NCBI GenBank assembly: GCA_951406725.2
Contig: OX597833.1
Location: 50,468,001-50,532,000 of the forward strand
From: Octopus vulgaris
Taxonomy: Eukaryota
Direction of reading: 5' to 3'
Length of the DNA stretch: 64,000 nucleotides
Part shown: positions 16,011 through 61,242 of the stretch, in pieces
Position numbering within the stretch: the stretch's first letter is position 1
How the letters are laid out: every line of letters begins with the position of its first letter
Program-made: the position numbers and the translations under genes
Notes under the pieces: model-generated
What the model saw: only the letters and a program-made list of their open reading frames with translations
What the model was told of the DNA's origin: nothing
Database searches by the model: none

Positions 16011-16123
16011 TATATATATATATATGTATATATATGTATTTATATATTGTATATAATAGTACTCATATATATACTTATATATACACACACACATATATAC
16101 ATTTATGTATATATATATAAATA

Positions 16124-16945
16124 ATGGCGGAGGATAAATTGTCACCATTCTACATCTTTAATTTCACGCATGCATATTGTTTGTTTTTGATTTTGTCGAT
16201 TACAAAGTATAGTAGGGTCAGTTGGGCACCGTCAGTGAAGAAAACAGCACTATGGCGCAATCCACGCTGCCAGAAATTTGGAAACGATATTCTGCTTGGC
16301 ATTCACGCACATGCATATACGAAAATTTCAGAGTGCTTGGGTGTCAATCTGAGGACAGTGATGAAAATTCGGAAAAAGTTGGATGAGTCTAATGGTGATT
16401 ACGAAGGCACGGCAGCTCGGAAAACTCACTCTGATCGTTCTGATAAGAAAAGTACGCCTGAATTTGTTGGCCACAACCAGGCCATAATTGATAACGTTAT
16501 GGGTATGTCTGAGATTCTTATCAGGCAGGCAGTGCATGAACACCTTTGGTATTCCTCATACAAGATGAGAAAGGGCCAATTTTTCTCCCAAACTATCAAG
16601 GACAAGAGGAAAGACCGCACTACGAAGCTTTTGAACAAACTCAAGCAGGCCCTCCAACCCAACATGTTTTTATTTTTCTCAGACGAGGAAAATTTCTGCC
16701 AGGATCAGATGGTGAACACACAGAAGAACCGTTAGCTTGCCGTGTCTCCAAAAAAATGTGCTGAGAGTGATAAAAATCAAACATCTAGTCAACATCATGG
16801 TGTTTCGTGTGATCACTAGGTGTTAAGTCTCCTTTTATCTTCCCATACAACCTCAGACTCAACACGAAGGCTTACATCAAATGCCTGGAGGAGGTAGTGC
16901 TGCCCTGGGTTAAGAGGGTGACTGCTGGAAAACCCTATGTCTGTC
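16124..16945 (+). pseudogene. Decayed Tc1/mariner-superfamily transposase (maT/DD37D-like)
   Basis: HTH-like region ISECLGVNLRTVMKIRKKL, first catalytic motif FFSDEENFCQDQMVNTQKNR, stop, then IMVF.VIT; stops and truncation. Confidence 0.8.
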
Positions 16946-52114: not shown

Positions 52115-53037
52115 GTAAACACACATACACACACACATATATTACACCATGCGCGCACAAATGAATACGCTTGTATGAGGAAGTGAATATATCTGATTTC
52201 TCAATTGTAATATGTAATCAAAGGAAAAAGAAACTCACACACATATACACCATAAACAACATAAGCAAAACCTACCTATTAGTTTTGTTGTAACAGCTGT
52301 TATGTTTATATATCTATCAAACAGACATTCACCAATAGCGCTTTGTAATTTCATTCTTACGTCTGAAGGTCCGACAGCCCATATTACGTCAGTGTCATTG
52401 CTTTATATATTTCAGCGTAAATATTTATGAAATGATGAAGGAATTTGGTAGCGTGGTTAATGTGTCGATAATAGATACTCTGTTAGTATTTGTTTTGACC
52501 CTCGGTTCTCAGATCAAATTCTGACGATATCCACCTTGTATTTTATTCTTTTAAAATCGAAGACTTTCCAGTCCACGATGGTAGTTTGACGGAAATGTAA
52601 AAAAAGTACCGAATGCTACCCGTTTCTTGTTCTGGCTCTTATGTTCCGCTTTCAAGGGATTATATGAACATGTTCTGAAGACAATTGGGATCAACTCCCA
52701 TTCAGAATAGGAGATAATCCAAAGAATTGTCTAAAATTGACGCGTCATTAAAAAAAGAAGACAATTTAATTGTTTGGAAAAAAATGTGGACACGTGTTTC
52801 TGCATTGACAGACATCATCAGAACTGATACACTCTCACCATATTTGCTCATTTAATTTTAAAAAAATCAATAATTAGAAAAATATCAAGGGTCAGACGTG
52901 AGAGACGTAAATTAGATACAAGTCTTGAAGAAAAATATAGAGAAAATATTTTACAGATTTCATTCTACAACTGTTATATGAACGACACTGTTAATTATTA
53001 AAACTAACGTTCATCCTGTGAAGGAATTATTTCAGTA

Positions 53038-57966: not shown

Positions 57967-58096
57967 TTTATTTTATAGAAGGAGCTTCTACAGGACTAGA
58001 ACTGTTTCATTCAAATGAAATCTTCAGGAAGCTTCCTGAAGATTTCATTGGAATGAAACAGTTCTAGTCCTGTAGAAGCTCCTTCTATAAAATAAA
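57967..58096. repeat. 130-bp spacerless palindrome (one mismatch) centred on AAGCTT
   Basis: TTTATTTTATAGAAGGAGC...CAGGAAG|CTTCCTG...GCTCCTTCTATAAAATAAA. Confidence 0.95.
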
Positions 58097-58252: not shown

Positions 58253-58645
58253 TATATATGTATATATATGCATATATATGTATATATATATATGCGTACA
58301 CACAAAAATACACAGTTATATAAACAAAGGAATAGAGATGATCGTAAAGCATTTTTCAATCAGTGAGAAACGCTTCGATAATCAGCAGACATTTTTATTT
58401 TTCATGAATCAACATAACGGATTATCTTTTATCTTTTACTTGTTTCAGTCATCTGACTATCGCCATGTTTGGACACTGCCTTGAAGACTCACTTCTTGTG
58501 AAGCCTTGTACTTGTTCTATCATCGCCTTGGTTGAACCGCAAAACCAGAGGGTCGTAAACACACCAACACCAGTTGTCTAGCGGTGATGATGTGACAAAT
58601 ATAAACTCAAAGATACACACACACATAGATAATATACATACATGT

Positions 58646-58699
<54 letters not shown>

Positions 58700-58726
58700 A
58701 TAAAACCACTACGCCATATGCCCACG

Positions 58727-58980
58727 GGCATATGGCGTAGTGGTTAAGAGCGCGGGTTACTAACCCCAAGATTCCGAGTTCGATTCCATGAGCAATGATA
58801 ATAAAAATAATAACATCGAAAAATACCTTAGGTTCGAAATTTCCCAAAGACACCTGAAGGAGCCTGGAGGGTATATCAGCCGAAACGTTGTGTTAACAAC
58901 AAACAAGATGAGGACAAATATCCGTTGAATGTAAACAATGCAAATAATGTACGTAATTCCTTATCTCTTAAATATAGAAG
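58727..58980 (+). mobile_element. tRNA-headed SINE-like element with a hammerhead-containing 3' part
   Basis: A box TGGCGTAGTGG and B box GAGTTCGATTCC; HHR-like GACAC-CTGAAGG-A-GCCTG..CAGCC-GAAACGTT|GTGTT at 58849-58894. Confidence 0.7.
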
Positions 58981-59866
58981 CCAACACCAGTTGTCAATCG
59001 TTGATGTTGGGCAATCACACACACACACACAAATACACACACACACACACTCAACGAGCTTCTTTCAATTTCCACAAACCAAGTCAAGGCTTTGGTTAGC
59101 GCGGCACGAAGCTATAGAAGCCACTTGCCCTAGGTGCCATGGTGTAGAACTGAACAAAAACCACGAGTTAAAGAAGCAAACTTCTTGCCAAACACTTACG
59201 TATACTTATGCTTCTGTATATTTTACTGTATTCTATTGTTTACAAGCCAATTTTTACGAAAAAAATAAATGATGAAAACGAACGAGGAGAATTTAAATAT
59301 GGTTTATTTAATGGAAAATAAAATTATTGGGGAAACAAAACTAATTCATAAATGTCGTTCTCTTATCACATAAAGGTTTTAGAAACAAATTTAGCAAAGC
59401 AGTAAATATAATAATTTATCACCGATTCTGTCACATAAATATTCGAATACTTTGATTTTAAACAAGGAGCAATGGATTAGCAAATAATTGATGAGAATTA
59501 GCAACAAGATACCTCCTTCTAATTTTGTTAATAAAATATTATAAGTAGAATTAAGTTAATACGGAACAAGTCGTTGACCTTTTAAAGGATTTTTCTTCAT
59601 TTTTGTTTGAAATGTGAGAATCTAGTTTCTCAGTGTATATATTTTGTGAGAATACATTTGAATGATTTGAGTGGAAGGATATTGCAGACAGGTGTTTACG
59701 CGCGTATTTATGTTTGCTTGTATAAGCAAGTTACCAACCATGAAAGCTAACATCTGTAAGTTCACAAGCGTTAAGGTGTATGTATGAAAACCATGCTTTA
59801 TGAATGACACGTTTTTCGAAGTCAAATATAAATTCACATGAATCAACAACGTGTGATGTCTATATG

Positions 59867-59902
<36 letters not shown>

Positions 59903-60677
59903 CATATGAATGAATTTGTGTCAGGTTGTATATAGATGTGAAGATTACAATTACACACATGAACATTATTCCCTAGTTTATCTCCCCTTACTAGTGCTCT
60001 CTCATGCATTGAAACCTTGTTTCCTTTTGTCTTCCCACTTACGGTTATTTTCGAATCAAAGCCAATTTAAGATATGCAGATAGCTTTTATATTTTTTTTA
60101 CAATCTTACGTTTCCTCTTTCGCCCAACTTGTCTCATGCTGTCATTTAACGACGGACTTAAGTCCAAAACCTTTAGACATCTGGATTCTTTTTTTCTTTA
60201 GCGTGAAACAAATAGCTATATCTTTGTCTTCAATAAACTACTTATTTTATTCTGATATTTTATTCTGTTATTCAGGCCAGGCAAAAAGCCGACCGCAAGA
60301 GGTCTTTGTTGGAGAAAAAGCAAAATGAAAGGAACAGAGATTTGCTCTAAGCTAAAGCACAAAACGTGTGAAGACTCAGCAGGAAGTTTGGCAACTAGTC
60401 AGAAAACCATATCACCACTACAAAGTCCACCTTCACAAAAACGACTATAACTCACAGCAGGAGAATACACAAATATAGAAATACCACAAGAAACAGCAAA
60501 ACAACGACTATCACGACAAAACAACTAAACACACAAAAAGTAACTAACCCATCACCTTTAATAATGCATACAGAAAAAATAGTGATGTATTTAGTACATA
60601 AGCACAAGCAAATAATAAAAGAATATAGCACGAATAAAGCGTATCCTAGACAAACGCTTACAATAATCTGAGAAATA

Positions 60678-61242
60678 TTGGGTTGTCCGGAAAGTTCGTG
60701 CCGATTTATAGTAGCTTAACTTCCGACTTATTTTAGAACATGGTTGAGTCAATAAAATAGGATTTGACTACACCTCCATTTAGAGCACAGTTTAAGCTAT
60801 CTTTTCGTGGAAGAAGGTTTATGTTTCTATAACCTGTGTTAATTCTGTAACCTTTTAAAATGGAAAAAAAGAAAGTTCCTTTTCGGCACTTGATGCTTTG
60901 GGAACCAGACAAAAATTGCTGAAGCTCGGCTGGGATGTGTTACCCCACCCTTCATATTCACCAGATATTGCTCCTTCGGATTTCCACTTAATCAGGTCTC
61001 TGCAGAATAGTCTTAACGGTAAAAATTTCAATTCCTTGGATGACGTAAAATGATACCTTGATGAATCCTTTGCCATGAAACCACCTCAATTCTGGGAAGA
61101 GAGTATTTTCAAGTTAAAGGAAAGATGGAGACGCATTGTGCAACAAAATGGTTCATATTTGGTTGATTAAAATGTGATGGCAAGTATTTATTGACCTTTT
61201 TCTTTCCTTTAAAAATCGGCACGAACTTTCCGGACAACCCAA
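60678..61242 (+). mobile_element. Internally deleted mariner element with perfect TIRs and TA TSD
   Basis: TIR TTGGGTTGTCCGGAAAGTTCGTGCCGATTT at both ends; N-terminus MEKKKVPFRHLMLW (ATG at 60860) joined out of frame to LGWDVLPHPSYSPDIAPSDFHL...ERWRRIVQQNGSYLVD*. Confidence 0.93.

Follow-up and report, generated by a model that had tools for sequence, protein, structure and literature searches.

The element at 58726-58979 of the window, by which we mean the whole 64,000-nucleotide stretch of Octopus vulgaris DNA analysed here, is almost certainly a solo pLTR of an autonomous Penelope/Poseidon-type element, an identification to which we give a probability of about 0.97. The pLTR starts with a tRNA-derived head. 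It had been proposed from the sequence alone that a Pol III SINE had captured a PLE end and was mobilised by a PLE. Mobilisation by a PLE is now well supported; the capture by a SINE did not stand, since the head proved to be fixed in the pLTR of the autonomous element, where it follows nearly every ORF end sampled. The parts of the window copy are as follows.

58425..58640, strand not assigned: left piece of an older abundant repeat, outside the element
58704..58723, minus strand: the head's first 20 nt repeated in inverted, fold-back orientation, a PLE-type inverted 5' arm (sequence)
58724..58725, plus strand: AC at -2/-1, the fold-back loop and likely RNA start region
58726..58788, plus strand: tRNA-derived head, the 5' part of the pLTR (158 ungapped heads)
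58733-58743, plus strand: A box (sequence)
58754-58766, plus strand: anticodon-like arm (sequence)
58776-58787, plus strand: B box (sequence)
58794..58814, plus strand: remnant of the (AAT/AAC)n microsatellite of the family
58815..58848, plus strand: spacer between microsatellite remnant and hammerhead (alignment, reading frames)
58849..58894, plus strand: minimal type I hammerhead, predicted cut between 58889 and 58890
58849-58853, plus strand: stem I, 5' strand
58854-58860, plus strand: hammerhead core
58861, plus strand: extra A
58862-58866/58877-58881, plus strand: stem II
58882-58889, plus strand: GAAACGTT
58890-58894, plus strand: stem I, 3' strand, with the predicted cut before it (between 58889 and 58890)
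58890..58979, plus strand: tail, the start of the N-terminal coding region of the ORF (frame match)
58981..59194, strand not assigned: right piece of the same older repeat, outside the element

The genome searched comprised 2.8 Gb in 227 contigs. A first search gave 2,287 candidates, from which 40 were scored and 30 loci fetched, and the layout head-(AAT)n-hammerhead-tail was common to all 30. Exact matches across the genome numbered 541 for a 30-mer of the head, 6,663 for a 17-mer of the head and 1,040 for one variant of the canonical 42-mer hammerhead, while the reversed-pattern control gave 0 for each. The many copies with the same head-hammerhead junction on which the original prediction had staked its case are thus present, in the 30 first loci and in hundreds more. 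Copies at the sampled loci were either solo or head-to-head, and contigs of sequencing runs from three other organisms hold the same parts. The same insertion was also seen in several segmental duplications, namely L050, L052, L059 and L060 on contig C31, L040/L043 and L284/L287/L289.

The tRNA-like head, with its A and B boxes and anticodon-like arm, is there as first described. Among 158 ungapped heads the A and B box positions were 76-100% conserved, with dips at CpG, and in the majority letters the acceptor stem is lost and the promoter boxes are kept. ARAGORN at default settings found no tRNA in the window copy, and called one in 30/158 heads only at -ps80, where the relaxed reading gave the anticodon ACT; Rfam recognised neither tRNA nor hammerhead at the window copy. 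Judged by its letters, the head is a decayed cloverleaf with retained promoter boxes, and it may resemble an arginine tRNA.

In the window copy the first base of the head, G+1, lies at 58726 and the 3' end of the insertion at 58979, as read from the sequence, and the head is separated from the hammerhead by about 60 nt rather than the roughly 70 nt first given. Three features had escaped the earlier description: the link to the ORF, treated below, the 20-bp inverted arm at 58704-58723, which is perfect (z -9.2), and a 14-nt deletion in the spacer, which removes the family's ATG segment before the hammerhead. Alignment and reading frames showed that the missing 14-nt piece holds an ATG which is in frame with the ORF in most copies. 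The frame from 58832 to 58979 matches the ORF N-terminus of loci L098, L094 and L120, and the tail ends at the more distal of the two 3' end clusters of the family. The pLTR interrupts an older repeat, both of its flanks matching adjoining parts of that repeat in L062, L069, L073, L077 and L090; a 15-bp direct repeat that flanks the window copy at a distance belongs to this host repeat.

The hammerhead, with its 5-bp stem I and palindromic stem III, was found at 58849-58894 as predicted. The claim that it lies two substitutions from canonical was borne out by 202 ungapped copies, in which position 58860 is A in 198 and position 58863 is G in 187, both the A9G and the stem II change being private to the window copy. 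The consensus likewise keeps the core, the majority form being CTGAnGAAGGCTG. CUGANGA and GAAA were kept together in 165/255 hammerhead copies, and 43/255 were fully canonical. The family thus has the features of a minimal type I hammerhead (core, stems I and II, palindromic stem III and NUH site), from which the window copy departs by A9G; with this change and the stem II mismatch its hammerhead is likely inactive. The sole core position with two alleles is the free N7 (T 143, A 57 of the 202 ungapped copies), where the count of A is partly inflated because some searches used the window copy as query. The copies examined continue past the predicted cut site, and therefore the RNAs from which they were copied had not been cleaved at that point. 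The minimal type I hammerheads described in metazoan PLEs, in the portion of their description available (PMC4209133), share the 5-bp stem I, the extra base between 9 and 10.1, G10.1-C11.1 and a stem III whose palindrome would suit a dimer; the length of stem II, here 5-6 bp rather than 7-8, is no difference of substance. A hammerhead-like motif was also seen in a metagenome contig (L214:2628), about 125 nt past the stop of an intact 827-codon PLE ORF, with no tRNA-like head recognised by eye before it.

The link to an autonomous element rests on several samples of loci. Of the 30 loci fetched first, 8 have the 3' part of an endonuclease ORF immediately ahead of the head. When ORF ends were sampled by likeness, 28/30 had a head hit directly behind them, and when sampled by pattern, 29/30 ran into the head, two of them with internal deletions; five loci of this pattern sample look like duplications of two insertions. 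In long copies (L098, L094, L120) hammerhead and tail stand before the ORF and are read in frame as its N-terminus, which is the match between tail and autonomous PLE that had been looked for, and the head, too, precedes the ORF in long copies. Tandem junctions running from ORF end to head, hammerhead and ORF start were present in L185, L192, L200 and L207 among 30 loci picked by the N-terminus, 5' pLTRs starting at the head were present in L193, L203 and L208, and L098, L229 and L239 are near-full copies. From these ORF links, long copies and tandems it follows that head-(AAT)n-hammerhead-tail is the pLTR of the element, whose unit was shown to be this pLTR, one ORF, and the pLTR again. Head-less ORF ends were not found as a class (1/30 ORF ends), and a control search for a head-less PLE family yielded none, all 30 loci fetched from 141 hits to a foreign PLE protein belonging to the head-bearing family.

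The ORF comprises an N-terminus read through the hammerhead, an RT and, C-terminally, an endonuclease of GIY-YIG type. RVT_1 was matched in L031 with 36.8 bits against a cutoff of 29.6, and L231 holds an open frame of 568 aa, from the RT to a VYSIP..LYKGET motif, with 1,564 homologues of RT-EN layout. The Pfam GIY-YIG profile gave no match in the ORF of the element itself, while PF01541 was present in three homologues. Penelope/Poseidon elements are marked by two cysteines between GIY and YIG and by no extra CX2-5CxxC linker finger (PMC8557442); these cysteines, with CxC spacing, and the lack of such a finger were read by eye in L033, L037 and L046 and in the homologues P0001, P0003 and P0005. 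The partial-tandem pLTRs, the inverted 5'-truncated arm and the optional tail of EN+ PLEs were also found, and the hammerhead in the pLTR overlaps the ORF start. On its domain features, then, the element is assigned to the Penelope/Poseidon type. Close relatives of the ORF (P0001-P0030, 44-69% identity, with P0001-P0005 at 55-68%) include one full-length protein of 847 aa, the N-terminus of which also reads through a hammerhead-like PDDG..PKR stretch. At ORF-linked junctions, for example in L017, a degraded fold-back arm seems to occupy the 20 nt ahead of the head, an appearance which suggests that the autonomous element may have gained its head from a short retrocopy by template switching.

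Counts of 17-mers 68 nt apart across the junction, both chosen without CpG, gave 6,663 for the head and 1,269 for the ORF end (2 for the ORF-end control), which puts short copies over ORF-linked copies at about 5 to 1. The 5' ends of the short copies are sharply placed. Among the first 30 head matches, in which two pairs look duplicated, 25 reach +8, 20 of these 25 end at -7..+8, and 0/30 extend beyond -26. Ends on the ORF side are spread from -40 to -780 (median -396), at about 0.002 per base. From this rate of truncation in the ORF about 3% of copies would be expected to end in such a window, whereas the share of head copies that begin no more than 15 nt from the first base of the head is about 80%. 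ORF-linked copies have the same two bases, AC, before the head, and 5' ends cluster at -3..+2. The 73 junctions at pattern-sampled loci comprised 28 distal fold-backs, 18 local fold-backs like that of the window copy, 17 flank joins and 10 ORF-linked junctions; among the distal fold-backs and flank joins together, 33/45 end at -3..+2, short of copying the 5' arm of the hairpin. The head junction is the second strongest DNA hairpin of the unit (-6.1 kcal/mol), a stronger one lying at about -2144. Two explanations of the 5' ends were rejected: RNase P processing at +1, since an acceptor stem is missing from the majority head and -2/-3 is a frequent end position, and RT stalling at an RNA hairpin, for which ends would be expected near +10 and only 6/30 lie at +6..+8. 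At the other end, most of 235 copies terminate in one of two clusters downstream of the cut site (146 and 83 copies), in a search that was blind to copies ending at the cut site. In head-to-head pairs a tail T variant (16/186) was present in both arms in 11/16 of the pairs that carry it (TT 11, AT 5), and therefore both arms of a pair mostly derive from one template.

That the head and the PLE fragment were nested by chance at this locus is practically inconceivable; the insertion does sit in an older repeat, but the same junction in 30/30 loci and hundreds more has already refuted the idea. It is also improbable that the PLE end was captured by a separate Pol III SINE that had master copies of its own, the head-bearing autonomous element being a later chimera. 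Such a history would fit the fivefold excess of short copies, the decayed fold-back look of the ORF-side junction, which would be expected if the head had arrived as a short retrocopy, and some allele frequencies that differ between short and long copies (for example N7 A in 13/55 versus 5/59, p 0.04). Against it, a comparison of 87 ORF-linked with 144 short heads over 203 columns gave no fixed difference, their divergence was alike (medians 4.7% and 4.5%), and only the single ORF end mentioned above was head-less. The head, which in a SINE should be absent from the autonomous partner, was carried by 29/30 ORF ends. A tail T at first seemed confined to ORF-linked copies (17/73 versus 2/106 short copies) and was tried as the mark of a SINE lineage with a prediction set beforehand, for which 933 exact matches were found, 100 listed, 90 stretches fetched and 95 arms scored. 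The predicted separation failed, since 8/42 head-crossing T copies were ORF-linked, which is the family rate, and the first enrichment probably came from the way the ORF loci were picked. This result and the lack of a fixed column indicate that short and long copies come from the same lineages. No non-autonomous SINE source lineage was found among the few hundred copies examined of the thousands present; the short copies may still be made in a SINE-like way, from Pol III RNA initiated at the head.

The best explanation of the 5' ends, and one that we rate somewhat above even odds, is that short RNAs start from the head, acting as an internal Pol III promoter within the pLTR. Pol III would start at about -3..+1, with the head as an internal type 2 promoter; tRNA-gene-type transcription by Pol III typically begins 10-15 nt ahead of the A box. 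From a solo or 3' pLTR a short RNA would result and from a 5' pLTR possibly an RNA of the full unit, because no terminator intervenes. The short RNAs would be copied into the genome by the enzyme of the element, whose RT-EN would nick AT-rich DNA and prime cDNA within the tail on RNA uncut by the hammerhead, much as, according to the portion of the report available, Poseidon_Ac does in vitro, where cDNA synthesis on uncleaved RNA begins within the tail (PMC11167929). Once at the RNA 5' end, the cDNA would fold back, either locally, as in the window copy, or at a distal microhomology, giving the inverted arm. The hammerhead would cut only as a dimer or with the help of protein.

Whether Pol III also makes the ORF RNA is a further question, to which we incline to answer no. 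No TTTT was common to half of the copies over about 2.7 kb (54 loci aligned on L098, being 60 less 6 duplicates), single copies of the family having about 0.4 TTTT per kb. In a 2,452-nt unit built from 110 loci there were 13 TTT runs and 0 TTTT, with 4.3 expected from mononucleotide shuffling, and the probability of finding none was 0.013 by the mononucleotide model, 0.097 by Markov 1, 0.22 by Markov 2 and 0.06 by a synonymous shuffle of 461 codons only; GGGG was likewise absent from this unit. Controls gave 50 TTTT in 9.8 kb of eight foreign PLE ORFs. In the same genome, 14 other ORF pieces of retroelements (those with an RT, endonuclease or integrase hit among 77 scanned) had 26 over 10.1 kb, the seven T-poorest of which, from LINEs, had only 6 in 5.1 kb. 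Read-through by Pol III would require an absence of TTTT such as this, which points that way without being decisive. Of eight long copies that reach across the upstream head, only 4 end at it (L193, L203, L205, L208). The full picture, of an autonomous protein-coding retrotransposon run by Pol III from a tRNA-derived promoter in its pLTR, with a 2.5-kb sense strand purged of TTTT, an uncapped and perhaps hammerhead-shaped RNA that is translated, and solo pLTRs shed at about five times the number of ORF-bearing copies, is in our estimate slightly less likely again.

The preferred reading, in which short RNAs start at the head, has also to be weighed against one in which a single capture brought the tRNA piece into the pLTR as a passenger, the 5' pile-up arising by snap-back of the palindrome or from a Pol II start. 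We regard this as possible but unlikely. It would agree with the palindrome in ORF-linked copies, which is the second strongest hairpin of the unit and which, if opened at its loop, would give the same ends at -3..+2, and with the local fold-backs that make up 18/73 of the junctions. For Adineta PLEs, which have no tRNA heads, the available text of PMC3846280 reports self-priming as well as palindromes at the 5' ends of pLTRs, and the pLTR of the D. virilis Penelope has a TATA-less LINE-like promoter according to the accessible part of PMC2377424. The lineages common to short and long copies and a probability of up to 0.22 for the absence of TTTT also suit a passenger. It does not readily account for the 45/63 short-copy junctions without a local hairpin, of which 33/45 end before its 5' arm, nor for promoter boxes that were kept though the cloverleaf was lost. 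The pile-up, moreover, lies at the site generally expected for a tRNA-gene-type start, which favours initiation at the head.

RNA reads gave no verdict on Pol III. Three RNA-seq runs mapped on L178 and one on L207 showed no piles of starts or ends; the runs looked unstranded, 75-80% of reads continued into dissimilar flanks, and in one run reads reaching past the tail into the ORF were nearly lacking. These reads look like passive transcription of embedded copies. A search of sequencing runs listed no RNA run with the family.

As far as the available portions of the two papers go, Poseidon_Ac of the green anole (PMC11167929) and Adineta Pen2a (PMC3846280) share with the octopus element a single ORF with RT and C-terminal GIY-YIG, partial-tandem pLTRs, an inverted 5' arm, a hammerhead overlapping the ORF start, two 3' end sites corresponding to an optional tail, a template uncut at the hammerhead and a palindrome at the 5' end of the pLTR; their descriptions there include no tRNA-derived A/B-box head, whereas here such a head starts the pLTR and the unit has no TTTT. 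Promoters described for PLEs are TATA/Inr-like or TATA-less and LINE-like, in the same partial text of PMC3846280 and that of PMC2377424. A Pol III promoter in a terminal repeat, derived from tRNA or 5S, is shared with TRIMp3 elements (Cassandra, Helenus, Ajax), for which the accessible text of PMC10886601 proposes an origin by SINE insertion into the repeat. By that account TRIMp3 are non-autonomous LTR elements with PBS/PPT and at most about 1.3 kb, whose autonomous partners are argued to need Pol II and not to share the LTR (PMC10886601), whereas here a coding PLE carries the head itself. The octopus repeat, belonging to a coding PLE, thus falls outside a class of non-coding, non-autonomous LTR elements.

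The Schistosoma SMalpha/Sj-alpha repeats (PMC6765202, PMC8490949) are short and non-coding, and in them a type I hammerhead comes after a Pol III promoter; the pairing is therefore not unprecedented. In the sections of these papers available, SMalpha forms tandem repeats, its hammerhead is shown to be active and no autonomous PLE with the same pLTR is named; the copies described here are mostly dispersed or head-to-head and are the pLTR of a coding element. Non-LTR retrozymes are also short hammerhead-bearing units related to PLE pLTRs, but they form head-to-tail tandems with a hammerhead per unit, and the available part of the preprint mentions no tRNA head (bioRxiv 10.64898/2026.07.22.740005). 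No paper on a tRNA-headed pLTR or a PLE-mobilised SINE was found in the literature searched. PMC13282606, in its accessible text, lists many Penelope and unclassified SINE families without such detail, and its repeat library may hold the head-bearing family; given a 1994 paper on three octopus tRNA-derived retroposons, the solo pLTR may already be catalogued. PMC8967140, PMC4824008 and PMC4758252, each available in part, provided context for comparison.

At the least, thousands of 'SINE' annotations in the Octopus vulgaris genome are solo pLTRs, and the findings speak for an origin of PLE inverted arms by self-priming. If the head is a working Pol III promoter, the TRIMp3 idea would extend to PLEs and to an autonomous element, and a route would be given by which a retroelement makes its own SINE-like offspring. 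Should the full unit be a Pol III transcript, this would contradict the expectation, voiced in the available text of PMC10886601, that autonomous elements use Pol II, and would offer a testable system in which to study how uncapped retroelement RNA is translated and what the PLE hammerhead, so far unexplained, is for.

Several other features of the window were recorded. A GC-richer stretch at 60256-60500 (plus strand), after a pyrimidine-rich AG, may be a host exon, in which case the insertion would be intronic. A near-perfect 120-bp palindrome at 57972-58091, between TA repeats, is possibly a MITE or other fold-back insertion, and decayed open frames at 16121-16732 (plus strand) and 60855-61085 resemble, by eye, pieces of a Tc1/mariner transposase. 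From 40296 downward on the minus strand lies a different tRNA-headed SINE-like repeat, common in the sampled flanks, whose first 30 nt resemble the A-box region of the pLTR head. Further CTGAnGA...GAAA motifs occur at 52821 (minus), 42155 (minus), 63411 (plus) and 23409 (plus). The last of these matches a repeat in L146 and L203, the other three being unmatched among the loci compared; two of the motifs, at 52821 and 42155, have the look of compact minimal hammerheads belonging to other families.
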